From IMG/VR virus record IMGVR_UViG_2778261510_000005: a stretch of 64,000 nucleotides of DNA; one strand, given 5' to 3'. Each line of letters begins with the position of its first letter. Positions within the stretch are counted from its first letter, which is position 1. Positions 1 to 64,000 of the stretch are shown here, piece after piece. Under the pieces are notes generated by a model that was not told the origin of the DNA, did not search any database, and saw only the letters and a program-made list of their open reading frames with translations. The translations under genes were made by a program, and so were the position numbers. Origin of the DNA: a virus. Taxonomy: Duplodnaviria > Heunggongvirae > Uroviricota > Caudoviricetes.

Positions 1-233
1 TATCGCTGGCCAAAGCCTTAGCGTAGGATTCCGCCCCCTCCCGCAAACGACCCCTATAATGGCAATGTGAATGTCTTCGTAGTTGACTAAAGCCACAACT
101 CAATTATAACAATTAATTATAGCAATGGTGGCTATTTTATTTATCGCGAATCACATTTTTTCTCTTCAGTACCTGTGTGCTATACTCCTTCTTGATTGAT
201 TGGATGCGGAATACAAACCCGCTCTTTTGTGCA

Positions 234-261
234 GCCTGGCTCCTTGCCAGGCTTTTTTTTA
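234..261 (+). terminator. Rho-independent terminator-like hairpin (GCCTGGC-loop-GCCAGGC) followed by T8
   Basis: Perfect 6-7 bp GC-rich stem directly followed by TTTTTTTT on the plus strand; preceded by a TGATTGATTGG motif at 195-206. Confidence 0.5.
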
Positions 262-570
262 TTTCATCATGGAAGCTGTTAACGCTTTGGACCTTGCTGA
301 ACTGATTGAGAGGACTTTGTCAACGTGCCCCAAAAATTCGCCAAACTCAGACATCACTTTAGCAAAACCGCGCCGTGCTTCTTCCTCGGTGGCGTTCATC
401 ACGAAATGTTCAGCACTACGCATACTTTTGACAGGGAACGCAACGGATATTGAGTCAATATCAGGCATCCTGTCGCTCAACTTTACAGTGACAATGACGG
501 CTGGCGACTGAATATTAGTGCTTACAGACAGCACTACATATTTTCCGTCGATGTTGAAATCCTTTCTCAT
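259..570 (-). CDS. Hypothetical protein downstream of cre (103 aa)
   Basis: ORF on same strand as cre, beginning 50 bp after the cre stop; the overlapping plus-strand ORF 200..511 looks less protein-like. No family recognised. Confidence 0.4.
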   Translation of the reverse strand: MRKDFNIDGKYVVLSVSTNIQSPAVIVTVKLSDRMPDIDSISVAFPVKSMRSAEHFVMNATEEEARRGFAKVMSEFGEFLGHVDKVLSISSARSKALTASMMK

Positions 571-586
571 ATGTCACCATAAATAT

Positions 587-603
587 CAATGAATTAGAGC
601 AAT
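587..603 (-). promoter_or_regulatory. Weak C1 operator-like site
   Basis: CAATGAATTAGAGCAAT; 3 mismatches to the reverse complement of the 17-bp C1 operator consensus. Confidence 0.3.
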
Positions 604-620
604 CATTTACGCGTTAATGG

Positions 621-1652
621 CTAATCGCCATCTTCCAGCAGGCGCACCATTGCCCCTGTTTCACTATCCAGGTTACGGATATAGTTCATGACAATATTTA
701 CGTTGGTCCAGCCACCAGCTTGCATGATCTCCGGTATTGAAACTCCGGCGCGGGCCATATCTCGCGCGGCTCCGACACGGGCACTGTGTCCAGACCAGGC
801 CAGGTATCTCTGACCAGAGTCATCCTTAGCGCCGTAAATCAATCGATGAGTTGCTTCAAAAATCCCTTCCAGGGCGCGAGTTGATAGCTGGCTGGTGGCA
901 GATGGCGCAGCTACGCCATTTTTTCTGACACGGCAAAACAAGTAGTTATTCGGATCATCAGCCACACCAGAGACAGAAATCCATCGCTCGACCAGTTTAG
1001 TTACCCCCAGGCTAAGTGCCTTCTCTACACCCGCGGTACTAACCAGCGTTTTCGTTCTGCCAATATGGATTAACATTCTCCCACCGTCTGTACGTGAGAT
1101 ATCTTTAACCCTGATCCTGGCAATTTCGGCTATACGTAACAGGGTGTTATAAGCGATCCCCAGAAATGCCAGATTACGTATATCCTGGCAGCGATCGCTA
1201 TTTTCCATGAGTGAACGAACCTGGTCGAAATCAGTGCGTTCGAACGCCAATGCCTGTTTTGCACGTTCACCGGCATCAACGTTTTCTTTTCGAATCCGCC
1301 GCATGACCAGTGAAACAGCATTGCTGTCACTTGGTCGTGGCAGCCCGGACCGACGATGAAGCATGTTTAGCTGGCCCAAATGTTGCTGGATAGTTTTTAC
1401 TGCCAGACCGCGCGCCTGAAGATATAGAAGATAATCGCGAACATCTTCAGGTTCTGCGGGAAACCATTTCCGGTTATTCAACTTGCACCATGCCGCCCAC
1501 GACCGGCAAACGGACAGAAGCATTTTCCAGGTATGCTCAGAAAACGCCTGGCGATCCCTGAACATGTCCATCAGGTTCTTGCGAACCTCATCACTCGTTG
1601 CATCGACCGGTAATGCAGGCAAATTTTGGTGTACGGTCAGTAAATTGGACAT
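621..1652 (-). CDS. cre: Cre site-specific tyrosine recombinase
   Basis: 343-aa translation begins MSNLLTVHQNLPALPVDATSDEVRKNLMDMFRDRQAFSEHTWKMLLSVCRSWAAWCKLNNRKWFPAEPEDVRDYLLYLQARGLAV and ends MVRLLEDGD, matching P1 Cre as I remember it; loxP lies about 420 bp upstream. Confidence 0.97.
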   Translation of the reverse strand: MSNLLTVHQNLPALPVDATSDEVRKNLMDMFRDRQAFSEHTWKMLLSVCRSWAAWCKLNNRKWFPAEPEDVRDYLLYLQARGLAVKTIQQHLGQLNMLHRRSGLPRPSDSNAVSLVMRRIRKENVDAGERAKQALAFERTDFDQVRSLMENSDRCQDIRNLAFLGIAYNTLLRIAEIARIRVKDISRTDGGRMLIHIGRTKTLVSTAGVEKALSLGVTKLVERWISVSGVADDPNNYLFCRVRKNGVAAPSATSQLSTRALEGIFEATHRLIYGAKDDSGQRYLAWSGHSARVGAARDMARAGVSIPEIMQAGGWTNVNIVMNYIRNLDSETGAMVRLLEDGD

Positions 1653-1659
1653 TTAACAC

Positions 1660-1881
1660 TCAGATGATGGTTTTAAGTAAAGTGTACAGGATCGGCTCTG
1701 CCTTTACCTGTTTATGGTTCTCGTCATAGAAACGCCAGCGACCGCGCGTGCGTTCTATTTTCTCTTCACCGAGCGATAATGACAGTTGGCAACTATCACG
1801 ATCAAACCCTTTTGCCCGCCAGTAACCACGGTTTTTCTCAAGCTCAAGATGAGTGGACACTTTAGCAGTTGAATATCCCAT
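1660..1881 (-). CDS. Hypothetical 73-aa protein between loxP and cre
   Basis: ORF with strong RBS (GAGGTG, 5-nt spacer, ATG) preceded by a CCAATCAATCA motif; may instead be cre leader sequence. No family recognised. Confidence 0.35.
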   Translation of the reverse strand: MGYSTAKVSTHLELEKNRGYWRAKGFDRDSCQLSLSLGEEKIERTRGRWRFYDENHKQVKAEPILYTLLKTII

Positions 1882-2070
1882 TTTTCACCTCTGATTGATT
1901 GGTGGTGCTAAGTGCGCTACGCGAAATCTGTAGGACTAACACCGTCAACTTTTCACAGATTTTACGTAGCGCAACCTTGATCAAATGATCAAGTGATCAC
2001 TATTTGACCTGCTAAGGTATTGAACTGTATGGATTTACAGGTAAATTGATCATATTCAATAACCCTTAAG

Positions 2071-2104
2071 ATAACTTCGTATAATGTATGCTATACGAAG
2101 TTAT
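2071..2104. other. loxP recombination site (13-bp inverted repeats flanking 8-bp spacer)
   Basis: Exact ATAACTTCGTATA-ATGTATGC-TATACGAAGTTAT. Confidence 0.98.
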
Positions 2105-2805: not shown

Positions 2806-3657
2806 ATGATAAATTATGTCTACGGCGAACAACTGTACCAGGAGTTCGTCAGCTTCAGGGATCTCTTTCTAAAAAAAGCTGTTGCACGCGCCCAACACGT
2901 TGATGCCGCCAGCGACGGTCGTCCTGTACGCCCGGTTGTCGTTCTACCGTTCAAAGAAACAGACAGCATTCAGGCTGAAATTGATAAATGGACTTTAATG
3001 GCGCGGGAACTGGAACAGTACCCAGACCTCAATATCCCAAAGACTATTTTATATCCTGTGCCTAACATCCTTCGCGGTGTGCGTAAGGTTACGACTTATC
3101 AGACAGAAGCTGTGAACAGCGTCAACATGACCGCTGGCCGCATTATTCATCTGATTGATAAGGATATTCGCATCCAAAAAAGCGCGGGGATCAATGAGCA
3201 CAGTGCGAAATACATAGAGAACCTGGAAGCAACAAAAGAGCTAATGAAGCAGTACCCAGAGGATGAAAAATTCCGTATGCGCGTACACGGCTTTAGCGAA
3301 ACAATGCTGCGCGTCCACTACATTTCCAGTAGCCCTAACTACAATGATGGTAAATCAGTTAGTTACCATGTGCCACTGTGTGGCGTGTTTATCTGCGATG
3401 AAACTCTCCGTGATGGAATTATCATCAACGGTGAATTCGAAAAAGCAAAATTTAGCCTTTATGACTCCATAGAACCGATCATCTGCGACCGCTGGCCGCA
3501 AGCAAAAATATATCGCCTGGCAGATATTGAAAATGTAAAAAAACAAATTGCCATCACTCGCGAAGAGAAAAAGGTTAAGTCAGCCGCATCAGTTACGCGC
3601 AGCCGTAAAACCAAGAAGGGGCAGCCAGTAAACGACAACCCCGAAAGCGCGCAATAA
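2806..3657 (+). CDS. c1: C1 master repressor of lysogeny
   Basis: 283-aa protein starting MINYVYGEQLYQEFVSFRDLFLKKAVARAQHVDA, matching P1 C1 in length and sequence as I remember it; cognate operators are scattered through the window. Confidence 0.93.
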   Translation: MINYVYGEQLYQEFVSFRDLFLKKAVARAQHVDAASDGRPVRPVVVLPFKETDSIQAEIDKWTLMARELEQYPDLNIPKTILYPVPNILRGVRKVTTYQTEAVNSVNMTAGRIIHLIDKDIRIQKSAGINEHSAKYIENLEATKELMKQYPEDEKFRMRVHGFSETMLRVHYISSSPNYNDGKSVSYHVPLCGVFICDETLRDGIIINGEFEKAKFSLYDSIEPIICDRWPQAKIYRLADIENVKKQIAITREEKKVKSAASVTRSRKTKKGQPVNDNPESAQ

Positions 3658-3689
3658 ATTATGCCCGGCATCAACCGGGCATTCTTCCA

Positions 3690-4808
3690 TTATTCAGCCG
3701 CCACCGGTTTTAACAAGCCAGCATCGAGCAGTTTACGCGTCAACCACTGCTGGCCTTTACCCGTTAATTGGGGCGTCAGCCGTATCTGGTAGCCATCTTC
3801 ATCATCCAGCACCACTTCTTTCACCGTGAAATACCCCGCGTTGATGTACTGCTGGAACGGCGCATTTTTACGTCCACCGGACGCTATCAGGATGCCGTTC
3901 TCCCGTAACCAGACAAACAGCGCGTTTTGCTTAAGTCCAACAACCTTTGCAAAATTCCCAATCAGGATCCCTTTAGCTACTGATACCCGGTCGGCAAAAT
4001 CGACTTTAAGAGCGGCGGCCACCAGCTGCTGATTTAGCTGGTGGGCTTTCTGTTCCAGAAGTTGCTTTTGTTCAGCCAGTTCGGCAGCCAGGCGTAGGGC
4101 TTCAGGAAGCGTCTGGGGGATTGCGATCGGTTGCTGTTCTTTTTGTCGGAAGTAGCTGTCTTCCAGTTTTTCAAAGAATGCCCATGCCTGATCGGTTTCG
4201 AGCATTTTAGCGTGGCGGGCTGCGCCGCGTTCTGTCCAGAGGGTGAGTGAGCGAACATTGCGAGCAATTTTTACAGAGTAGTTTAAAGCTACTCTGTGCT
4301 TCAACTCGCGCAATGATTCTCCTTCAACTTTGAAAAAGTGCTTCCCTTCAACAAAGCGTACTTTGTTCTCATGATGATTTTGGCGAATACGGATTGTTTC
4401 TGTCCCATACCCTCTAGCAAGAGTCTCGGTTGTCACTACACGCACTCCCTGCCATTCCAGAACGGGAATTTCATCAGACTGATTCTGAACAACCACCAGC
4501 TCCGATTCCTGAACTGAAGGTGCATGAATTTTTTCTAATTTAACGTTATTTGCTTTCATTCTGTGTGCCTCCTTGCGTGCTTCGGCTGCGACGGTTGCGT
4601 AATTCAGATGCCCCTGTTCGAGCAGGTATTCGCGGATATCAGACAACAGGATACGGTGAACCGCGTGTTTGTCCTTTCTCCGGTAAAGTTGTTTGGTGAT
4701 CATGAAGTAGTTGGCAATAACGCCTGGTATATCCCTGGTACTGATACAGGCAGTGTGCTGTTCAATTGCCTCGATCATCTCTTCACGGGTGACTAATGAC
4801 GTTCTCAT
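3690..4808 (-). CDS. Antirepressor-like protein, second Ant paralog (372 aa)
   Basis: N-terminus and C-terminal domain (IPQTLPEALRLAAELAEQK...GKGQQWL..KLLDAGLLKPVA) are paralogous to Ant at 51394..52431; about 400 bp is near-identical at nucleotide level. Start overlaps the stop of the upstream icd-like ORF. Confidence 0.75.
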   Translation of the reverse strand: MRTSLVTREEMIEAIEQHTACISTRDIPGVIANYFMITKQLYRRKDKHAVHRILLSDIREYLLEQGHLNYATVAAEARKEAHRMKANNVKLEKIHAPSVQESELVVVQNQSDEIPVLEWQGVRVVTTETLARGYGTETIRIRQNHHENKVRFVEGKHFFKVEGESLRELKHRVALNYSVKIARNVRSLTLWTERGAARHAKMLETDQAWAFFEKLEDSYFRQKEQQPIAIPQTLPEALRLAAELAEQKQLLEQKAHQLNQQLVAAALKVDFADRVSVAKGILIGNFAKVVGLKQNALFVWLRENGILIASGGRKNAPFQQYINAGYFTVKEVVLDDEDGYQIRLTPQLTGKGQQWLTRKLLDAGLLKPVAAE

Positions 4809-5026
4809 AGTCCCTCCTGAGCCGAAGCGTTAACAGGGAGGCACCAGTAACTGAGAGAATTGCGCGAATCGGTAGAAAAGCGGGCAGAGAAAATACAGGG
4901 AGCATCCGGAAGCTGAGAACGCGCCTCATCTTCTGTTGGTGCGATAACGAAGTGATAGTGACGTTTTTGGCAGGAGTAAAAGCGCCAGATAAATTCAGGA
5001 TGAGTTGGGGTAGGGATAGTAGCCAT
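4805..5026 (-). CDS. Icd-like small protein (73 aa) of a second immI-type cassette
   Basis: Internal ATG at 5026 with AAGGAGG RBS; MATIPTPTHPEFIWRFYSCQKRHYHFVIAPTEDEARSQLPDAPCIFSARFS parallels Icd at 52428..52649; same 4-nt overlap with the downstream ant. Confidence 0.55.
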   Translation of the reverse strand: MATIPTPTHPEFIWRFYSCQKRHYHFVIAPTEDEARSQLPDAPCIFSARFSTDSRNSLSYWCLPVNASAQEGL

Positions 5027-5190
5027 ATTGGCAGCCTCCTTAGACGTTGGTATGTAACCACCGCAGAAGAGACCAATCTTGCTGGCGGTGGACTGTACGG
5101 AGTTGGCCTTACTGGCGTCCAAGGTAACCAGCCTACCCGAAGGTAGCCCCATACAGCCCACCATTGTAGAGGTGTGCGTGTACGCCGATA

Positions 5191-5216
5191 CAAAAAAAAA
5201 GACGCGAGCGGCGTCT
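5191..5216 (-). terminator. Intrinsic terminator on the minus strand within the leader of the second icd/ant cassette
   Basis: AGACGC-GAGCG-GCGTCT hairpin followed, on the minus strand, by a U9 tract (plus-strand A9 at 5192-5200). Confidence 0.55.
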
Positions 5217-5340
5217 GTATCGCCTTAGACTTAAGCGGGAGGCCAATCCCGGCACCCGTTTTAATGAGGTGCCTGATAAGCATAAACCGAAAATGCCTCA
5301 AGGCGCAAGAGGTCAGGCTCAATGTAACATCGGTAGTTAA
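5217..5340 (-). ncRNA. Candidate c4-like antisense/leader RNA of the second immI-type cassette
   Basis: Lies between a C1 operator (5346-5362) and a terminator (5191-5216), upstream of the icd-like RBS; carries a second copy (5221-5229) of the RBS-region sequence CCTTAGAC (5038-5045), as in the P1 c4 decoy/target layout. Boundaries are guesses. Confidence 0.3.
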
Positions 5341-5345
5341 AAAAC

Positions 5346-5362
5346 ACAATTTATTAGAGCAA
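5346..5362 (-). promoter_or_regulatory. C1 operator upstream of the second icd/ant cassette
   Basis: CAATTTATTAGAGCAAA; 2 mismatches to the operator consensus. Confidence 0.65.
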
Positions 5363-5366
5363 ATAT

Positions 5367-6851
5367 TCATTCATTAAGCCATGCCAGAGCTTCATCAACC
5401 TGCGCTTCGTCTTCGACGCTAAGCACTTCATCCTGGGGAACATAATCCGCCAGCATAGCGAAACAATATGTATCCCAATGGTCTGGTGAGTGCAGGTTGA
5501 GTTTTTTCTTCATATCCTCCTTACTCATCACCTTCCATTGACCTGCGGAGTTAATCCCTACAGGGATTTTCGACGCTTCCTCAATAGTTTCATTACCCTT
5601 ATCCAGTCTCATACGACCAGATTTTACGGCCTCTGCGGCTTGAACGTTGGCATAAGCACGTTTATCAAAGTACAGGCTCTTATCTTCACGGCTATGCATC
5701 TTTTTACCCCAGCGTATACGCTGTACGGTAATACCATAATACTCGTACATCAGATCCGCCGTTGCTTTACCCAGGCCATCGCCGTCTATCGCTATGGTGA
5801 TATTTGGGAATCGCTCAGGATTACATTCTGCGAAAATTTTGGCGGCAAGCTGCGTTTCTGTAACGTCTGTGTATTCCAGCATTCGATAGTTGATTACACG
5901 GCGTTTATTTCGCTGGCCGGACACCATCATGATATTGATAACGGACTTATCCCGTCCCGTACCACCAGCAACGTCCACACATGCAAGCCAGCCCCATCCT
6001 TTGGCAATCTTGACTTTCCGCCGCGTTGCACGTTCAACCTCATCACGTCCAAGAAGGAAGCCATCCTGTGATTTAGGGAATAGGCCGCGTACCTTAATCA
6101 TGTACATAGGGTTATCACGCCCGCCGTACTCCGCCAGCTTCATTTTGATAAATGCTGGCGTTACCAACGGTGATTCCTCACTGTTAAGCGTGATCGCCGT
6201 ATAAACGCCATCAGGGTTACCAGGACGCTTGGCCAGTTTATGGTGAGTATCGTAGAAATAGCCGCTTGGGCGTGTAGGCTGTGACAGTAATAAGATGCGG
6301 TTATCCTGTCCGGTAAGAGCACCAGTGATGATACCGAAAGCTCTATCACTGACACCGGAGGCTTCATCGATAATATACAGAAGATGATCTGCGTGTTCAC
6401 CGGCGAGAGCTTCTTCACTTCCCAGACGAAAGCCCTTCGGTACTACAGTCCATACACCTTTACCAGTAACCTCATAGAAAGCGGTTTCTGTCAGAACAAA
6501 ATAATCAGCAAGCCATGGAAAACGGCTGGTGGCAGTAGCCCAGTTTATCTTGATGTACTTGAATATACCGGTCATTACCTGCTGAATTTTGTTCGCAACG
6601 ATAATGGCGCGGGCACCGGGATACATGATTATGAACAACATGATCATGATAGAAGTCATGTCTGATTTCCCGGTACCGTGACCAGACGAAACAGATGTCT
6701 TGCTACCCTGTTCCTGCACAGACTCAATAATCAGATCCTGCTGCCAGGTAGGTGTTTTGCCGAACAAAACATCAGCGGCAGCAATCCAGTCATAACGATA
6801 TAGCGCCACCAGCTCGCGCCAACGTGGATCCGTTACGCAACTTCTGGCCAT
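5367..6851 (-). CDS. pacB: Terminase large subunit PacB
   Basis: 494-aa protein directly downstream of pacA and overlapping its stop; size and position match P1 PacB. Confidence 0.85.
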
Positions 6852-8044
6852 TAATCATCATCCCCGTATAGCTTGCGGGTAACTTCTTCGTCTTCCTCCT
6901 CGTCTTCGTCCAGGTCTTGTTCCAGCCATGGGTCGTTTGATACACCTTCAGTATCAACATCTCCATAACCGCCTGTATCAACGATATCGGCGATTTCTTC
7001 CCTACGCTGCTCAATCCACAATGCGGCATCGGCGCGGCGGTTGGCGGCCCGTTCTCGCGCAACTTTGTCCAGATCTTCAAGAGAAGGGCCACCGACGGCT
7101 GTTTGCCTTTCCTCATCATCGGTATTGGTCTTAGGAGCACGCAGATCGGCTTTGATTTGCTCCAGCATCAGGGGCGGCACTTTCCCGCCATGCGCCTCGA
7201 TGAATTCAGCTGCTTCCAGCACTGACCAGTTATTTTCACGCTTTCGTTCGTATGCCAGCTTAACAATGCCAGCTTGCCCCATAGACAAAGCGTGCTTTTC
7301 CGCCTCCCGGCTTTCTTTTCGATAGTTATTCCGGATGCTGTAAATGGTGTTGATCAGGCTGCTTATCTGCGCGGAACAGCTGTTTAGCATGCTCGCGATA
7401 CGGTATTCAGGCGGAGTACCTTCATCATCGTCTTTTTGCTGATCGCGCATTTCCTGCACCAGGCGAATACACGTATCCCTGGCGTTCTCCAGCATAAGGA
7501 GGTGAGAAAGAGACTTTTCAAGAAGAGTGGTTTCCAGAACATCGGCCCCGGACCGACGCAACATAGCGCGCGCGGCCTTCCGCGCTTCAACGTTATCTAT
7601 CAGGTAATCGCCAGCTTCGAATTCAAAGCGTTCACCATCATCATCCAGGGTGTCGCGTTCCAGGCGATCACGTAAGGTCCGGTGGGCGCGGGTGATCACG
7701 TCATGATCATCTGAACGATCATTTATGCGCTTATTTTGGCGCTTCGCATTCTCGACTGCAGCACTGACAACGGCATTAACTCTCTGTTTTTCCGCTATTT
7801 CAGCCGCAATATGATCACCTGCATGTTGATCATTAGAGTGATCAATGATCATGCTTTTTAGTGGCTTCCTGACTGGCTTATTTGGCTTGCGGCTGTCCGC
7901 AGTCCTGGTGTCTTCTTTGAAGGCACGGAGATAACGACGTGCGGTATTAGGGTTAAGATTAAACTCGGCGGCATACTGTGCGATGGTGTAACCACCATCT
8001 CGCGCCAGGCGAGCAAAATTCTTCTTGTGATCGTCCCAGGTCAC
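6851..8044 (-). CDS. pacA: Terminase small subunit PacA (contains the pac site)
   Basis: 397-aa protein; N-terminus [39 protein letters not shown]; the coding sequence contains clustered TGATCA hexamers typical of P1 pac. Confidence 0.88.
7690..7855. other. pac packaging site (two clusters of TGATCA hexamers with Dam GATC sites)
   Basis: TGATCA at 7693, 7704 (plus GATC 7717) and at 7812, 7827, 7839, 7846, about 100 bp apart inside pacA. Confidence 0.75.
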
Positions 8045-8129
8045 TTATGCTTCCTTTCGTAAAAACTCTTTTTGACGCGAGGGTAACGAAAGTCACATGT
8101 CAAAAGGCCCGGAACGGGCAAGCAATCAA

Positions 8130-8582
8130 TCAGATACGTGCGGATGTGGCATTACCGTAATGACGGTGCTGACGGGCCACCTTATTGAAAAGTTGACGCG
8201 CCATTACCCAAGGCAGGTGCTCCCGGCGTTCCTTTTCGTCCTGCGTCATATAGAGTTCGTTCTGGAGTTTTTCATCAAACCGGCGCGGAGCGCGGCTGCG
8301 GCGAAAGAATTCAGGATTCAGAGAGTGGATCTGAAATCTACGTGGGCGTGTACTGTCATCAATCAAAACAGACGAATACTTAGACACAGCGATAGCCTTT
8401 AAGCGCAGATAAACATCGCGCTTATCGACATCCAGATGCGGGTATTCCTTTTCAAGGATTGCTGCGAGTTCTTTCGCTGATAGAAGAGATTTAGTGCGAA
8501 TCATGTAATCCGCAATCTCATACGATGTAATTCGTGAGTGATTTATTTCCATGAAGTGGCGTCCCTGCCAGTTAAGTAACAT
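8130..8582 (-). CDS. lpa: Putative late promoter activator (Lpa/gp10-like), 150 aa
   Basis: Assigned by size and position immediately upstream of pacA, as I remember for P1; not recognised by sequence. Confidence 0.5.
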   Translation of the reverse strand: MLLNWQGRHFMEINHSRITSYEIADYMIRTKSLLSAKELAAILEKEYPHLDVDKRDVYLRLKAIAVSKYSSVLIDDSTRPRRFQIHSLNPEFFRRSRAPRRFDEKLQNELYMTQDEKERREHLPWVMARQLFNKVARQHRHYGNATSARI

Positions 8583-54366: not shown

Positions 54367-54974
<608 letters not shown>

Positions 54975-54984
54975 GGGGGCTGAT

Positions 54985-55596
54985 ATGGGGCTTAATGTTG
55001 CTTCAGTAAAGTCTTATGTATCTTCGGCATTAACGACGACATTATTTGGCTCCGGCGTTGGTGAGCGGGAAGTTGGTAAGCTGACGTCAATCATCATGAA
55101 CAAAATGCTGTTCGCGCAAGGATGGCAGTTCTCTGTCGAAGTTGATGGACTGGAGGGGGCAGACTTCTTTGCCAAAGATATTACCTACCACGATTACAGC
55201 ATCGAATATGAAACGATTAAAATCGGCGGAGGGAATATCCTTCAACCAACGGAGCGTTCGCCTGGGCAGATAACAATGATGGTCAGGGATACCGTTGATG
55301 GCCTCGTTTTGGACTGGTTTAAGACGGCAAAAAGTCGGGTGATCAATCCGGACGGTACCGGGAATATACCGTCTAAATATTTGCTCAATGTGCGTATTTA
55401 TCGGTTGCTGTCTTCCGGCTTAACCAAACTGGAAAATGAGATGACGGTATTCCCGGTCACTACCGGAGATGTCACCTATGCGCGGGATCAGGTTACGGAA
55501 TTTAAGTCATTCCCAATGACCTTCGCATTGCACAGCACGTTTAACCAATCCTCAAGTTCTTTGGCTTCCCTTCTGGGCTTTAGTTTTTCTCTTTGA
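54985..55596 (+). CDS. Hypothetical structural protein (203 aa)
   Basis: Tightly packed operon member. Confidence 0.6.
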   Translation: MGLNVASVKSYVSSALTTTLFGSGVGEREVGKLTSIIMNKMLFAQGWQFSVEVDGLEGADFFAKDITYHDYSIEYETIKIGGGNILQPTERSPGQITMMVRDTVDGLVLDWFKTAKSRVINPDGTGNIPSKYLLNVRIYRLLSSGLTKLENEMTVFPVTTGDVTYARDQVTEFKSFPMTFALHSTFNQSSSSLASLLGFSFSL

Positions 55597-55610
55597 ATTA
55601 AGGAGCAAGG

Positions 55611-56492
55611 ATGCTTTTACCCCTTTTCCCGCTACCATCGCGGCCAACTGAATTGATCCAGTTCCGTCAGCCAAATATTGCTGATGCGATGCGTTTCAAC
55701 TCGATAACACCGGAGGAACAAGAACAACAGACAACGGCGTATTTAAAAGCCTTGCTGGCTGAACCCGCGAAACATGATCCCCTGACATGGACGGCGCAGG
55801 ACCGGATTACCGCGTTATGGTGGATATTTACCGGCTCCCGTGAAACACCGGTCGAGACATTCACCTACACCTGTAAACATTGCGGTAAAGAGCATTATTA
55901 CGATTGCGATATGAATGCTCTGGCTGAAGATATCCAGGTCCTGGAAGTGGAACCTTTCATTGACGATATTGAGGTGTCTGTAGAGGGAGTGCCTTATCAA
56001 TGGCGTATCGTGCCGCTTGATGGTTGGGCAATGGAAATGCTGGAGATGCGCCGTGCAGCATTGCCACCTGAAGACGATGCGGAATTCAAAGAAGCGATCG
56101 TTGATTTGCGTTTTTGGGAATTCGCTTATCAGTGTGAGCTTTATAACGATGTTAGCGGTACTCGTGAAGATCAGGCTGAGCGTCGTTATGAAACGATTAA
56201 ACGGATGGCCATTGATACTGAATTTATGAAACTGGCGGCACACATCCGACTGGCTCATGAAAAGCTCGAACATGGTTTACCGTGCTACATCGATAAAGGT
56301 GAAATGCGTCTTCGTCTCCCGCCGCATAAATGCCCAAACCAAGATAAAAAGGAGTCCACAGAGGGTGCGTATACCCGTCTGTGGGTGCCCTTTCGGGCTA
56401 CCGACTTCATTCCACAGGTGGGGATTGAAAAGCTATCAGACCTTAGTGTCCAACCTGGTTTTGTATGGGGGTATACCGATTCAGGACGCTGA
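55611..56492 (+). CDS. Hypothetical structural protein (293 aa)
   Basis: Operon member immediately upstream of sit. Confidence 0.6.
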   Translation: MLLPLFPLPSRPTELIQFRQPNIADAMRFNSITPEEQEQQTTAYLKALLAEPAKHDPLTWTAQDRITALWWIFTGSRETPVETFTYTCKHCGKEHYYDCDMNALAEDIQVLEVEPFIDDIEVSVEGVPYQWRIVPLDGWAMEMLEMRRAALPPEDDAEFKEAIVDLRFWEFAYQCELYNDVSGTREDQAERRYETIKRMAIDTEFMKLAAHIRLAHEKLEHGLPCYIDKGEMRLRLPPHKCPNQDKKESTEGAYTRLWVPFRATDFIPQVGIEKLSDLSVQPGFVWGYTDSGR

Positions 56493-56573
56493 AAGGCTCA
56501 CTGAATCCTATGCGTTTTTCCTGTTGGAGAAGCTGGAAGAAAAACTTAAACCGAAACGGTAGGCGATAAGATC

Positions 56574-59500
56574 ATGGAAAGAAAAAACGCCAACATTGAC
56601 GATGTTATAAGGACAGTTGAAACCGCCAGCGCAAAAGAGCTGGAAGAGCTTGCAGGTATCCGGGAAGCTGTTGAAGATTTGAAAGGGGGACGCGTTGCTA
56701 CTGTTGATCCTGTCTCTCGCAGCGTGTCGGCATTAAATCGCACAATCGAAAATTCACGTCCTGACTTTGTGACCAAAGCGCCATCAGTAGACCCTATTGT
56801 TGACGCAATGAAACGGCTTAATTTAGGGGACGTTTCTCGTGTAGTTCAGGAAGATGTTGCTCAACAGGAACAGCGGGCCAAATCAACCACACCAAAGGGT
56901 AAAAAACGACGCAGGAAGGCTATACCAGAGGATGTAAAGGCACAACGGACCGAAGCAGCCGAACACGCTCGCGAAATGTTCGGTCAAAAAGGCGGTGCGC
57001 AAAAAAGCCAAAACCAACGCGATGCGCGTGGTCGTTTTATTGGAAAGTCAGGGAGTAAGGCCGCAGCGGAAGAAGCCCGTGCTGAACGAGCAGAAAAGGC
57101 CAGGCGAAAAGAGGATGATGAGCGTCTAAATGCTGAATCAGGTTTATTAAAAAAATTGTCAAAAGTAGCTGAAGGCATAGGTAACCCTTCAGAGACTCGT
57201 GCCGTCGATGCGTTAGGTTATGCCGTTGCTGGTCCATTGTGGGCAGCAGGGAAGGAGCTTGGCGGGATATCAAAAGAAGTTGGCGGATCGCTTAATGGTG
57301 CCAGAAAGTCTATTGCCGATGTGATTCGTGGCAATGACGATAACAGCCGTAGAAAAGGTTTTTTTAGGCGTAAATCGCAAAATAGTGTCGATGTCGTTCA
57401 GGTTAACACCCAAAAACGGACGGTTCAGGAACTTCAGGATCAGACCAGCGAAATTAAAGAGGGCAATGACAAGATTCTCAGCGCCCTTGATCAGATAGCC
57501 AAAAACACCGGGAAAAAGAAGGGCGGCTTGCTGTCCAAATTATTTAGCCTGTTAGGGAAGGGGGCCGGTGGTATTGCCTCCCTTATTTTTGGCCGTGGGG
57601 CACTAAAGAAAGTTGGCTCGATGGCACTCGGCGCTTTAGGTATTAAGGGGGTAGGGAAACTAGGGATTAAGGCGGTCGCAAAAGGCGCTTTACGTGCAAT
57701 TCCGCTAGTCGGCACGGTGGCTGGAGGTATCTATGATGCGGTAACCGGTTGGAATGATATAGAAGCGCAACGCCGAGCGTTTGGGCTTAAATCAGGACAA
57801 GATCCATCATTCCAGCAAAAAGCCGCTTATACGTTAGCTAATGTTCTTGATATGGGGGGACTGGTATCTGGTATTAGCAGCGCCATTGGTGAGGTTCTCA
57901 AATCACTTGGATTTGAGGATATCGGCAATATGTTGCAATCATTTTCGACGGAAAGTATTGCCCAGGCCATTGATAGCGGGGTTACCAACTTAGAAACATA
58001 TATTTCTAATCTTGGCGACACCATTTCTACCAAGTTCGATGATTATACAGCAAAGATTGGTGATGCTATTTCTGCATGGTTCAGTGACACCACAAAGAAT
58101 CTGAACGAAAAATTAGACGCCATCAAAAACTTCTTTACTGTCGATAACCTGAAACAGGTTTTCAGTGATGCAATTGATAGTGCAATTGATTTCATTAAGA
58201 ATCCTGGGAAATACATTAAAGAGGCTGGCAGTAATCTATGGAGTGCCGCAAAAGAGCTTTCAGGTGAGGTTGCAGATGCCGCTGTTCAGAGCACCCCTGT
58301 GGCCTGGGTTGCATCAAAGCTAGTCAACAAAGCGGATGCGAAAGAGGTTACACCTGAATTAAAAACACCAGCTAAAGAAAGTCAGGAGGACAATGCTCCT
58401 AAGACTGAATATACCCCTAAAAAGGCTAATATTGTCACTCGTGTTGTAAATGCATCCCTAGATACGGCGAAAGATAGCAATAAAACAGTTAAAGAAACTG
58501 CCAATCAGATTATCAATGCAAATGCCGTAGAAACGGGCAATCGCGCGTTGCAGAAAATTGATAATGCTATTGGTCAAAATAGCTCGTCATCATCCTCGCT
58601 TAATACCACTGGCACTAGGAATGACATTCAGAAAGCTGCGGATACCTACAATAATGGCAACTTGGATGTAAAAGTCGGAAGTCTTGGCGCTGAAGGTAAG
58701 GCAAATCTCGATAAGTTGGCTCCGTATTTTGCTGAACTAGAGAATAAATATGGCCTTCCTGAAGGTACTCTTTACGCGATCGCTGCAACTGAATCTGGTG
58801 GTGATCCTAACGCAAAATCTACGCTTACAAGATCACCAAATGGAAAGCTAAGTGGTGGCGCTCTCGGAATGTTCCAGTTTACGAGCGTTGCTCGTGAGGA
58901 AACTGGATTATCCCGGGAAGATTCTTTTAATCCGGAAAAATCGGCAGAAGCTGCGGCTCTTCTCATGAGCAAGTATCTGAAGCAAGCCAATGGAGACTTA
59001 AACGAGGCCATCACTGCATATAACGCTGGGTTTGGCACTATCAATAAGTGGAAAAAAGGCACAGGTGACTTATCGAAAGAAAACCGTGAGTACGCGATCA
59101 AGGTCAATACTCATCGTGCTCGCTATTTAGGTGGTGAAATCTATACACCTGGAGCAGGAGCACAGGGTGGGGCGCAATATGGAGTGAGGGGACCACTGCC
59201 TGATAACGCTGTTATCGATCAGTCTACTGGCTTGGCGTTTACCCCTGGTGATAGCCCGTTTGAGAAAGGCGGTCTGGTAGACAAAATCGGCAATGCTGTT
59301 GGCGTTAACGATCTGGTCAACAAATTCATGAATGGCCGGGGTATGCGTCGGGAAGTCGTTCAGGGAACGCTCGAAGAACGTGCACGAGGGAAGGGGACCG
59401 CAACAGCAGCTGGCAATGTGTATGTTGATACCCCGATGCCAGTTGAAGAGGCGCGTCCGGTGGCCAACAACTCAAGTTACTTTGACCAGCTCGGCGCACA

Positions 59501-59906
59501 AATGGGGATTGATGGACTATTCGATAAACTCCGCAACTCGCCGGGGATGCGGAAAAATAATGAGCCTGAACCAGCCTCCACGTCCCAGGTGACGACTGCC
59601 GCCAACGATTTGCAGCAACCAACCGGTCGTATGCAGATAGACGGACAGGTTATTAGTGACCTTGGCGGCTCCGGTGCCAAGCCGACAATGCAGTTGGCTG
59701 ATAATACCGTTTCACTTGATGGTGAAACGAAGCGGCTGTTTGCGCAGATGACCTCATTGCTTGCCAGGATTGAAGAGCACACCAAAGACTCGGCGAAAGG
59801 CCAGGGAACTGTCGTAAAGGTCAGCACGCCTCAGCCGGGCGTTATGCGCACGGTACCACTGTCAATTGATGATCCGTTGATGAATGACTACGCGAGAGTT
59901 GATTGA
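56574..59906 (+). CDS. sit: Sit, tape-measure-like structural injection transglycosylase
   Basis: 1110 aa with a soluble lytic transglycosylase domain (ESGGDPNAKS...GALGMFQF...AYNAG) in a long coiled-coil/Gly-rich protein. Confidence 0.88.
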   Translation: MERKNANIDDVIRTVETASAKELEELAGIREAVEDLKGGRVATVDPVSRSVSALNRTIENSRPDFVTKAPSVDPIVDAMKRLNLGDVSRVVQEDVAQQEQRAKSTTPKGKKRRRKAIPEDVKAQRTEAAEHAREMFGQKGGAQKSQNQRDARGRFIGKSGSKAAAEEARAERAEKARRKEDDERLNAESGLLKKLSKVAEGIGNPSETRAVDALGYAVAGPLWAAGKELGGISKEVGGSLNGARKSIADVIRGNDDNSRRKGFFRRKSQNSVDVVQVNTQKRTVQELQDQTSEIKEGNDKILSALDQIAKNTGKKKGGLLSKLFSLLGKGAGGIASLIFGRGALKKVGSMALGALGIKGVGKLGIKAVAKGALRAIPLVGTVAGGIYDAVTGWNDIEAQRRAFGLKSGQDPSFQQKAAYTLANVLDMGGLVSGISSAIGEVLKSLGFEDIGNMLQSFSTESIAQAIDSGVTNLETYISNLGDTISTKFDDYTAKIGDAISAWFSDTTKNLNEKLDAIKNFFTVDNLKQVFSDAIDSAIDFIKNPGKYIKEAGSNLWSAAKELSGEVADAAVQSTPVAWVASKLVNKADAKEVTPELKTPAKESQEDNAPKTEYTPKKANIVTRVVNASLDTAKDSNKTVKETANQIINANAVETGNRALQKIDNAIGQNSSSSSSLNTTGTRNDIQKAADTYNNGNLDVKVGSLGAEGKANLDKLAPYFAELENKYGLPEGTLYAIAATESGGDPNAKSTLTRSPNGKLSGGALGMFQFTSVAREETGLSREDSFNPEKSAEAAALLMSKYLKQANGDLNEAITAYNAGFGTINKWKKGTGDLSKENREYAIKVNTHRARYLGGEIYTPGAGAQGGAQYGVRGPLPDNAVIDQSTGLAFTPGDSPFEKGGLVDKIGNAVGVNDLVNKFMNGRGMRREVVQGTLEERARGKGTATAAGNVYVDTPMPVEEARPVANNSSYFDQLGAQMGIDGLFDKLRNSPGMRKNNEPEPASTSQVTTAANDLQQPTGRMQIDGQVISDLGGSGAKPTMQLADNTVSLDGETKRLFAQMTSLLARIEEHTKDSAKGQGTVVKVSTPQPGVMRTVPLSIDDPLMNDYARVD

Positions 59907-60262
59907 TGGCCAATAATAACGAAATTGATCCTTTGCTGACGCTGGAGTTATCCGGCGTAAAAACGTATGAGTCCCAGGAGGAGGCCTGGGGCGCTCGTTT
60001 ATATGAGTGGCTAAACACTTATCAGGGTGAGGTATACGGGGATCCGTCATGGGGCAATGTTTTACCGCAGTTTAAACACGAACCGACCAACTTGTCGCAT
60101 GTTCAAATTGCGGTTGAGGCAATGCTGTTGCAAAAACTGACGGTAGATTTACCTGACATACCGATTTCTGGCTTGTCAGTAGCCGAGGGAGATGCTTTTG
60201 ATAAGTTGAAAATATCCATTCGTATCAGGGATATAACTATCACACAGGACGTGGTGCTATGA
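59903..60262 (+). CDS. Putative baseplate wedge protein (gp25/W-like), 119 aa
   Basis: Size and position between sit and a large baseplate-like gene; overlapping stop/start. Confidence 0.5.
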   Translation: MMANNNEIDPLLTLELSGVKTYESQEEAWGARLYEWLNTYQGEVYGDPSWGNVLPQFKHEPTNLSHVQIAVEAMLLQKLTVDLPDIPISGLSVAEGDAFDKLKISIRIRDITITQDVVL

Positions 60263-61692
60263 GTAAAACAACACCGACTAAAGACAGTATTCGTGCAGAG
60301 TTTGAAGAGCTTGTCGAGAAAGATTCATTCTGGTCGAAGTTTGTCGGCTCTCAATTTGTCTCGATGCTGACATTGTTTATTACCCAGATTGTCTACAGGT
60401 GCTTTCAGTATGCCGATGCGGCGCTGGCTGAAGGCTTTATATCGACCGCGACGCGGCGTTCCTCTATCCTGGCAGCGGCAGAAACGAATAGTTACGTTGG
60501 TACCAAGCCAACACCGTCATCGGGGATGATTGAGATCACCGCCACAAGTGAAGATGCCCCAGCGGTAATCCCCAAAAACATGCCTTTAATATCTGACGAC
60601 CAGTACCCTTACATGACTATGGATGTATGCAGGTTGGTTGACGGCACCGGTACGGTAGAAGTGGCACAGTTGGAAATCCAGGAGGTGACATATACCGTTA
60701 CGGCAGCCAAAGAATTTCTGGAAGTCGTGTTATCAAAGGCTCTCACTGCTGTCTGCTATAAGCTGGAAGTATTCGTGACGACCGATGGTAAGACCACACA
60801 GTGGTCTTCCAGCACTATGTTCCGGTTAGCCGGTAGTAAAAGCCAGGTCTACGTTGAGTTTTATAAACCATCCGAGCAGTTGGGGGTTCGATTCGGTGAT
60901 GGGCTAATTGGGCAAATACCGCCAGAAGGCTCGACCATTACACTTAAGGTATGGTGCACCAACGGAGATATAACCTTGGTTGCTGGCCAAAATCTGACGC
61001 CTGTCGATTCTGCTGCTAATTTAGCTAATTTGATTTCAGTTAAGACAACGACACCCATAACCGCAGGTACCGATGCCGAAACAACGGAGATCACACGTAA
61101 TCGTGCACAATATTACCTTGCCTATGATGATCAGGTCGTATGGGGCGGGGACTATACGTATTTTCTGGTGCGTAACATCCCGGGACTGTCCTGGATAAAG
61201 GCATGGGGCGAAGGCCAGCAAGAGAAATTAGATGGTGCTTATAATGTTCGGAATATCAATAAGATATTTATTTCAGGATGGCATCCAAACAAAAGCCAGT
61301 CAGAGCTTGAAGAAATGATCCTGGCTGCCTTTAAGAAGGTGCCGAATGAGTTGAACAAGAAATTCTCGTATAAAGAGGTCAGAAAACTACCCTTTAAGAT
61401 CACCATCACCGGGCGGATATCGGCAAGCCTGACCATTGAGAACGTGACTGATGAGCTGAAGTCGGCACTGGAAACAAAATTTGGGCGCGACTCAACTTTC
61501 TTTGATCCGAACCGCGTCGGAAAGTACATCCTGATTAAGAAAAAAGACGTTTGGGCGTTTATCGAAACGCTGGGTTATTTCCGCGACTTTTATCTGGAAT
61601 TTGTCGAGTGGAATGAGTCCAACGGCTTTTACGATTTCGTTTATCTGGATACAGAAAGCTCCACCTTTAATATTTCGTATGAGGAGGAGTGA
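60259..61692 (+). CDS. Putative baseplate protein (J-like), 477 aa
   Basis: Large protein translationally coupled on both sides within the tail module. Confidence 0.55.
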   Translation: MSKTTPTKDSIRAEFEELVEKDSFWSKFVGSQFVSMLTLFITQIVYRCFQYADAALAEGFISTATRRSSILAAAETNSYVGTKPTPSSGMIEITATSEDAPAVIPKNMPLISDDQYPYMTMDVCRLVDGTGTVEVAQLEIQEVTYTVTAAKEFLEVVLSKALTAVCYKLEVFVTTDGKTTQWSSSTMFRLAGSKSQVYVEFYKPSEQLGVRFGDGLIGQIPPEGSTITLKVWCTNGDITLVAGQNLTPVDSAANLANLISVKTTTPITAGTDAETTEITRNRAQYYLAYDDQVVWGGDYTYFLVRNIPGLSWIKAWGEGQQEKLDGAYNVRNINKIFISGWHPNKSQSELEEMILAAFKKVPNELNKKFSYKEVRKLPFKITITGRISASLTIENVTDELKSALETKFGRDSTFFDPNRVGKYILIKKKDVWAFIETLGYFRDFYLEFVEWNESNGFYDFVYLDTESSTFNISYEEE

Positions 61693-62528
61693 TGCAGCGT
61701 TCCTGGTTTAATAACCGGCTTACATCAGCTAAGCAAAAGTCATTGCTCTATAAATCATTGGCTGATTTGGTTCAGTCAATGATGGACACCTTTGTTGACC
61801 CATGGTTGGAGCGAATTACCAACCGGAAGTCTATTTTCTCCATGAGCAAGGAGGATCTGGAGACCAGGACAAATGAACTTGGCCAGTTCTTTACTATCAG
61901 AACCTCGAACTCATCTTCCGTTCCGATGTTGTTACAACAGCGGCTTGATGAGATCCACTTTAAGGGAACTGAACGCCCTATAAACCAGACAATTTACCGC
62001 GAATTTAACGGTATTTCTGTTTTATGGGATCCGATATATGCACCGGTGGACCTTGAGCGTCATCCCTATGGCACGGTTCTAATACCAGAAAGCACACTGG
62101 AGACTACCGGCGGCACATTCGGCGAGATGTTTCTGACTTCCAGAGGGATGATCAGTATTCCCATAAACGACTTGGCCCGGACAATGGGGATTACTGGCAC
62201 GATAGATCAGTCCGCAATTACAGAAGAAATTCTCAGAAAGTTTAATCAGTTCGTAAAGCCTCTACTGCCACTGCATATAGTGTTTGATGGGCTTACGCTC
62301 TATTTGTCGGTTGTTGTAAATGAACAGGCCGACATGATCACTTTGAACGAGATTTCTGATACCGAAAAAGCGTACTGCTGGTTTGAAACTTCGGATACAA
62401 CTTCGCTTACTGGAGTTACGTCGATTAGCGCTCCGATCACTGCAACGCCGGGCGGCACTATTGTGAAAGCAACGCCTACGTTTGATCGCACCCGCGCAGA
62501 TGATTTGCTGCTGGATAGCGATGCCTGA
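61689..62528 (+). CDS. Putative tail/baseplate protein (279 aa)
   Basis: Operon context. Confidence 0.55.
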   Translation: MMQRSWFNNRLTSAKQKSLLYKSLADLVQSMMDTFVDPWLERITNRKSIFSMSKEDLETRTNELGQFFTIRTSNSSSVPMLLQQRLDEIHFKGTERPINQTIYREFNGISVLWDPIYAPVDLERHPYGTVLIPESTLETTGGTFGEMFLTSRGMISIPINDLARTMGITGTIDQSAITEEILRKFNQFVKPLLPLHIVFDGLTLYLSVVVNEQADMITLNEISDTEKAYCWFETSDTTSLTGVTSISAPITATPGGTIVKATPTFDRTRADDLLLDSDA

Positions 62529-62606
62529 CAATCACCCCGTCCGTAGGGCGGGGTGACAAGTTACTTCTCTTACAATGAGGCTTCACAACATTGATTAGGG
62601 AAAATC

Positions 62607-63041
62607 ATGTCTGACGTCTCAACAAACCTCTATAAGAGTCAGTTGTTGGACTATTACTATCAGCGGCGCGCTGAATCGTCCATTAACAAAGGCTCTCGAT
62701 TTTTAATCAGCAAGGCCGTTTTCGGTACCAGTTCGCTGGTTACCAAGAAAGGAGATGGCACTTATGAGATTGGAGAACTGCCAAAGGCTTTCGATCTGGC
62801 AGAACTGACCAGTCAATTTTGCACCATCAACCTCGTGCCAACCTACTCAGGTGGGATAATTACTGTCCGAATGGACCTTGATCAAAGCCAGTTGCAGGAA
62901 GGGAAAAACTACCCATTCAACACTCTGGTTGTTCTGGATAACGAGAACAAGCCAATCGCCATTATTTGTGTCCAGGAAGACTCGCTGTATGTGGGCAAAA
63001 CATATACCGCAGTTATGGCCATAAACACGACTACAGCATAA
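62607..63041 (+). CDS. Putative tail protein (144 aa) upstream of the tail fibre gene
   Basis: Position immediately before the tail fibre gene. Confidence 0.55.
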   Translation: MSDVSTNLYKSQLLDYYYQRRAESSINKGSRFLISKAVFGTSSLVTKKGDGTYEIGELPKAFDLAELTSQFCTINLVPTYSGGIITVRMDLDQSQLQEGKNYPFNTLVVLDNENKPIAIICVQEDSLYVGKTYTAVMAINTTTA

Positions 63042-63052
63042 GGATATGCTTG

Positions 63053-64000
63053 ATGAATGACGTTACAGTTGTCACATCGGTTACTTACCCATCACCCGAG
63101 TCGTTGGCTCTGGTGGCTGATGTGCAATACCACGAACCATATCTGTCAGCCGCGCTAAACCGAAAATTCAGGGGGATTGTTGACCCGGGATTTTATGCCG
63201 GTTTCTTACCTAAGCCTGGCGGTGGGATGAACCTGTTAATCACCTCAGTGGATGGTGATAAAACCGCAGGCGCGGCGTCGGTGGATATTGGTGAATTCTA
63301 CCAGGTAACTATTCAGCAACGTAAGGATATTTCTCTTGCACTTAGTGCAGGCAAGAAATATGCAATTGTGCTGAAGGGAAGATACCTCCTTGGAGAAGAT
63401 ACCTATCAGGTGAATACCGCGTCACATATTCATGCGGCTGAATTTGTTGCCAGAACCTATACCGATTCATATCAGTTAGGAGATGGGGAGCTGCTTGTTT
63501 GTACGGTGAATATCCCTGCTGGTGTATCTGCCATTACCCAAGAGATGATTGATACATCCGAGCGTATCAACCGCACGATCGGCATTGATATTTCAGACTC
63601 TGTAACCAGTAGCAGAAGTGATGTTGCTGCAAGTTCGCTGGCAGTTAAAAAAGCTTACGATCTGGCGAAAAGTAAGTATACGGCGCAGGATGCAAGCACA
63701 ACGCAAAAGGGATTAGTTCAGCTCAGTAGCGAAACTAACAGCGACAGCGAAACAATGGCGGCTACCCCTAAAGCCGTTAAGTCTGTAAAAGATCTTGCTG
63801 ATACCAAAGCGCCAATAGAAAGCCCGAGTCTGACAGGAACGCCAACCGCGCCGACGGCAGCGCAAGGTACAAATAGCACGCAGATCGCAAATACAGCCTT
63901 TGTTAAGGCAGCTATAACGGCACTTATCAACGGTGCACCTGGCACACTGGATACGCTTAAAGAAATAGCTGCTGCGATCAATAACGACCCGAATTTCAGC
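63053..64000 (+). CDS. Tail fibre protein, N-terminal part (partial, runs off the window)
   Basis: Open frame from ATG 63053 to the window end; contains the conserved tail-fibre N-terminal region (GLVQLSSETNSDSETMAATPKAVK...NSTQIANTAFV...GAPGTLDTLKEIAAAINNDPNF). Confidence 0.75.
   Translation, partial: MNDVTVVTSVTYPSPESLALVADVQYHEPYLSAALNRKFRGIVDPGFYAGFLPKPGGGMNLLITSVDGDKTAGAASVDIGEFYQVTIQQRKDISLALSAGKKYAIVLKGRYLLGEDTYQVNTASHIHAAEFVARTYTDSYQLGDGELLVCTVNIPAGVSAITQEMIDTSERINRTIGIDISDSVTSSRSDVAASSLAVKKAYDLAKSKYTAQDASTTQKGLVQLSSETNSDSETMAATPKAVKSVKDLADTKAPIESPSLTGTPTAPTAAQGTNSTQIANTAFVKAAITALINGAPGTLDTLKEIAAAINNDPNFS

Follow-up and report, generated by a model that had tools for sequence, protein, structure and literature searches.

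Canonical P1 gene order and cassette-level mosaicism in a probable P1-family phage-plasmid

Gene content and orientation of the window

The virus record IMGVR_UViG_2778261510_000005 (Caudoviricetes) was analysed over a stretch of 64,000 nucleotides, here called the window, which carries cre and loxP, the repressor gene c1, packaging genes, repA and par genes, an immI locus and tail genes of the kind known from phage P1. An earlier reading of the letters alone (the sequence-only reading) had named these P1-like modules, all of which are present, and had held that their order departs from the canonical P1 map. Alignment with P1 and P7 gave another picture. With a probability that we put at about 0.93, the window represents ~64 kb of a ~95-100 kb P1-family phage-plasmid (Punavirus P1-type, IncY) in canonical order, differing from its relatives at the level of cassettes only.

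Read against the P1 reference map, whose orientation it reverses, the window spans the constant part of the tail-fibre gene S, the entire right arm, loxP and the DNA up to the ref promoter. When it was compared by megablast, in three parts, with a phage collection, P1, P7, RCS47, SJ46, JL22, vB_EcoM-673R5 and phi456 matched at 96-98%, and the P1 coordinates ran backwards and contiguously (window 2088-25000, P1 94800-76233; 25001-50000, 76232-51126; 50001-64000, 51125-36894). Blastn against P1 (NC_005856) yielded one minus-strand collinear chain, leading from P1 36894 in the constant part of gene S via 94800/1 (lox) to 2024, upstream of ref; examples of its high-scoring segment pairs (HSPs) are window 64-2087 with P1 2024-1, 2088-3656 with 94800-93232, and 57653-64000 with 43259-36894. 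The matches cover 52,994 of the 64,000 bases, weak icd/ant and parA matches (65-81% identity) included. By tblastn, 60 of 76 P1 proteins were placed in the window in a strictly monotonic series (Kendall tau -1.0), each gene on the strand opposite to its P1 strand. Collinearity with P7 (AF503408) was equal to that with P1. No inversions, transpositions or duplications relative to P1 and P7 were found by blastn in the 64-kb window, and the secondary HSPs were solely paralogous similarities among ant, icd and kilA.

This synteny with the P1 reference map places the window in the P1 family, and the window is best read as the P1 map in reverse. The apparent departure from P1 gene order comes from a mistaken version of that map together with the reverse orientation; it is not real, the window being P1 in reverse and equally collinear with P7. 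The repL-kilA-immI block illustrates the point. Its position between tail genes and sit had been described correctly, but there is nothing anomalous in it, since the P1 record gives the series sit, pmgB, tub, pmgC, simCBA, c4, icd, ant1/2, kilA, repL, rlfA, rlfB, pmgF, bplB, pmgG, 21, 22, 23, and tblastn recovers the same series in the window from sit (56574-59906) back to gene 23 (42331-44058). Three of the four neighbourhoods that the sequence-only reading had singled out as anomalous are real, as cassette replacements or insertions that leave the order unchanged.

The functional hallmarks of P1 are likewise found. For Cre-lox cyclisation there are an exact loxP and a Cre identical to that of P1 over 343/343 residues. 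The IncY assignment was judged on RepA (286/286) and on the flanking oriR/incA DNA, aligned at 95-97%, the iterons not being taken one by one. Sites matching the 17-bp asymmetric C1 operator number 15 in the window against 0.37 expected and, apart from the one in the second immI-like cassette, stand at P1 operator positions, those near c1 at 2148, 2231 and 2695; this dispersed set accompanies the C1 repressor and the c4-icd-ant genes of immI. Among the packaging and structural proteins PacA is 97%, PacB 88.7% and Lpa 99.3% identical to their P1 counterparts, and the products of 22, 23, tub, sit, bplA and others are full length. The features are collected in Table 1.

Table 1. Features of the 64,000-nucleotide window, with positions, strands and the evidence for each (aa, amino acids; nt, nucleotides; ORF, open reading frame; R-M, restriction-modification)
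Feature	Position	Strand	Evidence
c8 (262-570), cre (621-1652), cra (1663-1881); P1 cre region	262-1881	-	tblastn against P1: Cre 100%, Cra 98.6%, C8 96.1%
loxP (P1 map origin)	2071-2104	-	exact 34-bp match, 0 expected by chance; P1 alignment runs through
c1 repressor (immC)	2806-3657	+	99.6% aa to P1 C1; 280/283 to P7 C1
Second immI-like cassette (inserted)	3657-5368	-	Rfam, Pfam, operator match, sequence read directly
ant-like ORF, 372 aa, ORF6N and KilAC	3690-4808	-	Pfam ANT 6e-29 and ORF6N; 55.5% aa to Ant1
icd-like ORF, 73 aa	4805-5026	-	80% aa to P1 Icd; overlaps ant by ATGA
a2/b2 targets, b2 overlapping Shine-Dalgarno	5040-5080	-	inspection
C4-type antisense RNA (C4-2)	5081-5168	-	Rfam RF01695, 75.9 bits (gathering score 45), full model 1-87
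isrK-like leader with a1/b1 targets	5195-5272	-	Rfam isrK 60.8 bits
C1 operator-like site, TTTGCTCTAATAAATTG	5347-5363	-	2 mismatches to consensus
pacB, pacA, lpa, pdcB, pdcA, doc, phd, in P1 order	5367-10526	-	tblastn 97-100% to P1, except PacB (438/494 aa)
Type IC R-M cassette, replacing P1 84483-87969 (pmgT to humD)	10603-16744	+	Pfam, EcoR124 subunit matches, breakpoints
hsdM	10703-12265	+	Pfam; 1148 bits over 520 aa to EcoR124 subunit in PDB
hsdS	12262-13431	+	Pfam; EcoR124-family conserved regions
hsdR	13553-16669	+	Pfam including EcoR124_C; 2293 bits over 1038 aa to EcoR124 subunit in PDB
pap, pmgS-pmgL, 26, 25, 7, 24, 6, 5, dbn, ban, tRNA-Ile2(CAT)	16745-30309	.	one 13.6-kb HSP, 98.4% to P1 84482-70924
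SPFH/Band-7 cassette, replacing tciABC	30310-31397	-	no P1 match; Pfam Band_7
SPFH ORF, 275 aa	30328-31155	-	99.3-99.6% identical in MH422554, 813R1, RCS47
plp (truncated), tRNA-Thr/Asn, dmt, hrdC, uhr, upfC, upfB, ppfA, mlp, upfA, oriR/incC, repA, incA	31398-39805	.	96.5% HSP to P1
repA	38699-39559		RepA 286/286 identical to P1 and to P7
P7-type partition module	39806-42213	+	98.8% nt to P7 over 2.6-kb region
parA	39912-41123	+	ParA 403/403 to P7; 58% aa to P1
parB	41120-42085	+	ParB 319/321 to P7; 43% aa to P1
parS	42131-42213	+	81/83 to P7; P7-type box B hexamers intact
23, 22, 21, pmgG, bplB, pmgF, rlfB, rlfA, in P1 order	42331-49386	.	tblastn 94-100%; HSP 97.1%
repL, kilA, ant1/2, icd, c4 RNA, a1b1 targets, Oc4 operator (canonical lytic replicon and immI)	49555-52981	-	tblastn, Rfam, P1/P7 immI alignment
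Primary C4 RNA	52697-52782	-	Rfam C4 68.4 bits
c4-a1b1 leader	52851-52904	-	Rfam 47.1 bits
Oc4 operator	52965-52981	-	operator match
P7-type upf50.5 and upf50.0, replacing simCBA	52980-54355	+	no P1 match; 99.7% to P7; P7 annotation
upf50.5, lipoprotein	53263-53784	+	Pfam; P7 annotation
upf50.0, DUF5384	53788-54327	+	Pfam; P7 annotation
pmgC, tub, pmgB, sit, pmgA, bplA, 16, R, 5' constant part of S	54408-64000	+	tblastn 98-100%, except Sit (90%)

Cassettes and divergent stretches in the backbone

The stretches that blastn left uncovered or weakly matched against P1 are 3657-5368, 10603-16744, 30310-31397, 39806-42181, 52980-54355, an 81-bp indel in sit, and 1-63. Every variable locus of the window is a published hot spot (PMC9603915, PMC6906374); eight variable regions, simCBA, tciABC and pmgT-humD among them, have been described in P1-like elements (PMC9603915).

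The largest of these stretches holds a type IC hsdMSR cassette. Both HsdM and HsdR are homologous to the prototype over their full length and, judged from their sequences, are essentially the same proteins as the EcoR124 subunits. When HsdS was aligned with that of EcoR124 its N-terminal, central and C-terminal conserved regions were found to be identical, whereas both target recognition domains (TRDs) are divergent, and the four-residue TAEL repeat of the spacer (LTAEL) occurs in three copies, where the PDB EcoR124 HsdS chain has two. One would accordingly expect a recognition sequence other than that of EcoR124. The locus is flanked by P1 DNA, with phd-doc on one side and pap on the other, and blastn sets the junctions at P1 87970 and 84482. 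In the P1 record, 87969-88647 carries an annotation of homology to the DNA upstream of the EcoDXXI hsd locus, and 84263-84482 and 84399-84482 carry annotations of homology to the DNA downstream of the EcoDXXI and R124/3 hsd loci, respectively. The window has the P1-derived flanks in common with the EcoR124I/II and EcoDXXI systems, and its HsdR and HsdM are essentially identical to those of EcoR124. Work on such hsd loci (Tyndall et al. 1997, Mol Microbiol 23:729) is listed among the references of PMC12707154.

The placement of hsdMSR on the humD side of phd, as given by the sequence-only reading, is accordingly right, but neither the allele nor the hot spot is new. Zhang et al. list pmgT-humD as their variable region 8 (PMC9603915), and in pSvP1 a type I R-M system has been reported in place of pmg genes (PMC6906374). 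The alternative that hsdMSR replaces P1 res-mod was dismissed as mislocated, since res-mod (P1 3.5-9.7 kb) falls outside the window and hsd lies in the pap-phd interval. No full-length, high-identity match to hsdS was found among the enterobacterial plasmids of PLSDB, where the best cover was at most 70%. The unlisted TRD pair would imply a new type IC specificity, which is the lesser part of a reading that we consider possible at somewhat less than even odds. HsdS residues 6-386 are 75% identical in amino acids to an hsdS on the Lactococcus lactis plasmid CP064340.1 (L085 3997-5106), the HsdM and HsdR of that system being 80% and 78% identical to those of the window.

The partition genes were found to be of the P7 species throughout, in ParA, ParB and parS. 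ParA had been called clearly diverged from P1 ParA, which holds (58% amino acid identity), yet it is identical to P7 ParA at all 403 residues, and the idea of a novel partition type was rejected on that account. P7 parAB has been reported in the P1-like plasmid pTZ20_1P (PMC6906374). At the sim locus upf50.5 and upf50.0 stand as in P7, and an SPFH gene takes the place of tciABC. G+C content is 43.4% in the hsd cassette (37.9% in hsdS) and 40.3% in the upf50 cassette against 47.8% in the backbone, and these AT-richer cassettes agree with an earlier description of low-GC hot spots (PMC6906374).

Outside the cassettes the backbone is ~97-98% identical to both P1 and P7. In 1-kb bins identity to either phage is ~95-99.9%, with P1-closer and P7-closer bins alternating, and two stretches, in pacB and sit, are diverged from both. 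This pattern fits repeated homologous exchange among P1-like elements, as far as can be judged from the alignments.

The pacB allele (5367-7000) matches P1 and P7 at 438/494 amino acids and falls to 77.5% nucleotide identity in 6001-7000, with its neighbours pacA, lpa and c1 at 97-99%. Sit (56574-59906) has 1110 amino acids against 1140 in P1 (90% identity), with the indel at 57572-57652; the divergent kilobase of its gene, 58001-59000, is 88% identical to P1 and 82% to P7. At window 31552-31576 a stretch of 254 bp of P1 (69775-70028, upl and the plp N-terminus) is absent. The HSPs that flank it overlap by 25 bp, and therefore a deletion between short direct repeats is suggested. At the far end of the window, in 1-63, homology to P1 ends at P1 2024, shortly upstream of ref; a break at window positions 54-73 is seen in many related plasmids too, and the region falls in the AT-rich c8-mat junction, an insertion hot spot (PMC6906374).

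Two immI-type loci and the specificity of their C4 RNAs

The immI-type cassette that the sequence-only reading had placed between c1 and pacB is real and was already known in part, an ant insertion between pacB and c1 having been described in P1-like plasmids, RCS47 among them (PMC6906374). It is absent from P1 and P7, in both of which pacB and c1 lie ~27 bp apart, and it occurs at the same place in 673R5 (98.3%), RCS47 (92%) and JL22 (88%). We had considered a mere ant paralogue, which was rejected when Rfam and inspection of the sequence brought out a full regulatory cassette: a C4 structure, two a/b target pairs with b2 over the icd ribosome-binding site, an icd coupled to a KilAC antirepressor, and a C1 operator. 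Part for part, its layout is that of immI.

The upstream targets of the second cassette are a1 TTGGCCT and b1 GTCTAAGG, and the downstream targets are a2 TTGGTCT and b2 GTCTAAGG, the latter fused to the AGG of the Shine-Dalgarno sequence. The exposed elements of C4-2, CCUUGGAC and AGGCCAA, are complementary to these targets, with one G-U pair each in a2, b1 and b2 and none in a1 (by inspection). In the primary immI, by comparison, a is TTGACAG and b is GATTGTG. Because the recognition sequences of the two loci are unrelated, the two antisense circuits should be orthogonal.

With the immI of P1 and P7 the second cassette has its parts and their order in common (C1 operator, a1/b1 leader, C4, a2/b2, 73-residue icd and KilAC antirepressor), but it adjoins c1, its Ant is 55% identical to Ant1 and carries ORF6N, and its leader is of the isrK type instead of c4-a1b1. 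The isrK model of Rfam represents an Hfq-binding RNA of the Salmonella Gifsy-1 isrK locus, and the match points to kinship of the cassette with the antirepressor loci of lambdoid prophages. Two further ORFs of 195 and 119 amino acids (4783-5370, minus strand), which lie across the C4-2 and isrK-like RNAs and match no Pfam family, are unlikely to be genes; the real small gene in this interval is the 73-residue icd-like ORF. No Pfam family was found for the icd-like ORFs.

Alignment of the primary C4 region (52640-52985, minus strand) with P1 and P7 revealed a hybrid: the b' loop, CACAATC, is the P7 version and a', CTGTCAA, the P1 version. The targets follow suit, b1 and b2 being of P7 type and a1 and a2 of P1 type. 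Citron and Schuster (1990) reportedly traced P1/P7 heteroimmunity to a small number of base changes in immI. When IMG/VR and a genome collection with one genome per species were scanned by pattern, 80 P1-like C4 loci were obtained, the genome collection by itself giving two loci. They comprise 35 loci with P7 versions of both elements, 17 with P1 versions of both, 15 that combine P1 b' with P7 a', and 13 that combine P7 b' with P1 a' as the window does. RNA and targets match in 75/75 loci where all four targets could be read; the other five have no downstream pair in the available sequence.

Along the DNA the elements follow in the order a1, b1, b', a', a2, b2. Because a and b elements alternate, a hybrid needs several exchanges or independent compensatory changes, and the hybrid classes suggest selection on specificity. 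The four combinations may correspond to four immI specificities; P1/P7 heteroimmunity has been ascribed to a few base differences in immI (PMC6906374). No description of the four-way pattern was found in the P1-like literature examined, and the pattern offers a natural covariation data set for the evolution of antisense-RNA specificity. It is conceivable, though we would not bet on it, that the immunity set-up of the element defines an unrecognised heteroimmunity class in the P1 family. If so, the element, with an orthogonal second cassette, might at the immI level lack immunity to P1 and P7 alike; it would possess an extra, independently gated antirepressor, and immI would act as a two-digit combinatorial lock under selection for new specificities.

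Origin of the mosaic and its relatives

The differences from P1 would be explained by replacement or insertion of cassettes at recombination hot spots on a canonical P1/P7 backbone, most likely through homologous recombination in highly conserved flanks between co-infecting or co-resident P1-like elements. In this way an EcoR124-family type IC hsdMSR would have taken the place of pmgT-humD, a second module of C1 operator, C4 RNA, icd and ant with its own recognition sequences would have entered the 27-bp pacB-c1 spacer, and the P7 parA-parB-parS, the P7 upf50.5/upf50.0 in place of simCBA and the SPFH gene in place of tciABC would have been acquired as further cassettes. We infer recombination because the junctions are sharp and the alleles shared.

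That the modules had been reshuffled into a non-canonical order, making the element a structurally distinct lineage, is practically untenable. The proposal goes back to a presumed P1 map alone, and it is true that four cassettes and one insertion alter the immediate neighbours of phd, c1, pacB, pmgC and ban; but the unbroken gene order shared with P1 and P7 (60 genes, tau -1), the reference position of repL-kilA-immI and a backbone 97-98% identical to P1 and P7 alike speak against it. The element may be called recombinant in the weak sense that it is a mosaic of P1 and P7 alleles, whereas a distinct lineage finds no place, the window lying inside the ordinary P1/P7 (Punavirus P1) cluster. Assembly, too, could have made such a mosaic if the contig were a chimera joining two co-resident plasmids of the P1 family, for instance one resembling P1 and the other P7, and the alternation of P1-closer and P7-closer kilobase blocks, as well as the lack of an identical record in any collection searched, would suit that origin. 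We hold it to be highly improbable: each junction falls at a hot spot that recurs in numerous finished, long-read plasmids and phages; P1 and P7 have identical RepA proteins, so that two such plasmids would be IncY-incompatible and are expected to be co-resident only rarely; within 350 bp the C4 RNA covaries consistently with its four targets, in a class that recurs in 13 other loci; and the backbone ORFs are all intact.

The absence of the putative morphogenetic genes pmgT/U/V and of hot, humD and sim raises the question of whether the element is a defective, plasmid-only P1 derivative unable to form phage. By tblastn no counterpart was found in the window for simCBA, tciABC, upl or any of the nine genes that extend from pmgT to humD, and loss of lytic functions has been recorded in P1-like plasmids (PMC6906374). 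Against this, the structural, packaging, late-activator and lytic-replication genes in the window are full length with 89-100% amino acid identity, a genome with the same hsd and ant arrangement has been deposited as a phage (vB_EcoM-673R5), and the block from pmgT to humD varies among members of the family, P7 being one of them. We therefore regard a defective element as unlikely, although less so than a chimera, and prefer a P1-family phage-plasmid in canonical order with exchanged cassettes. What weighs against the preferred explanation is that the equivalent of P1 2025-36893 (ref, mat, res-mod, dar, portal, lysis, cin and the C-segment, ~1/3 of the element) lies outside the window, as does the variable tail-fibre segment, and rearrangements could be present there; that the case for recombination is built on junctions and shared alleles; and that no record of at least 99% identity over the whole window occurs among the phages, PLSDB plasmids and complete E. 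coli genomes searched, the exact allele combination being undocumented.

From the allele calls, several properties can be predicted. The IncY replicon should make the element incompatible with both P1 and P7, and partition-mediated incompatibility should be of P7 type and not of P1 type. C1 immunity is predicted to be as in P1 and P7 (immC should equal that of P1 because C1 is 99.6% identical), with an immI specificity that is neither that of P1 nor that of P7. The element is also expected to raise a further type I restriction barrier of its own specificity and to have lost the functions of HumD, Hot, Lxr, Sim and Tci. Taken together, the calls (IncY replicon, P7 partition, C1, immI, antirepressor, type IC) would predict which related elements are coexisted with, excluded or restricted.

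Close relatives are frequent. A single stretch covering at least 80% of window 1-25000 occurs in at least 132 plasmids of PLSDB and in 104 of 5,426 complete E. coli genomes; nearly all of these matches are ~95-kb plasmids, and the best ones listed have hsdR, hsdM and a KilAC antirepressor annotated in the matching stretch. For the first 25 kb the best record reaches 98.1%, and the best record is not the same for every third of the window. The alleles comprise the P7 par and sim loci, RepA and Cre as in P1 (RepA as in P7 too), and cassettes common to RCS47, 673R5 and many plasmids. The window is thus a new combination of known alleles in an ordinary mosaic member of the P1/P7 group that had not been sampled before, one more of the very common E. 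coli P1-like phage-plasmids, with mildly novel threads only in the combinatorial C4 specificities, the full architecture of the second immI cassette and the unlisted type IC HsdS.

Among known elements, vB_EcoM-673R5 covers 97% of window 1-25000 at 97.5%, including the hsd and ant cassettes, but is without the P7-type par module; RCS47 and JL22 have the ant cassette as in the window, RCS47 also the SPFH cassette, and pTZ20_1P has P7 parAB and the ant insertion. All window alleles together are found in none of RCS47, 673R5, JL22, pTZ20_1P and the ~100 E. coli plasmids of ~95 kb. With P1 (NC_005856) and P7 (AF503408) the window shares gene order and relative orientation throughout, and it differs from both in the type IC hsdMSR cassette in the pap-phd interval, in the second c4-icd-ant cassette between pacB and c1, in the SPFH cassette where they have tciABC/terB, and in its diverged PacB, shorter Sit and hybrid C4 specificity.

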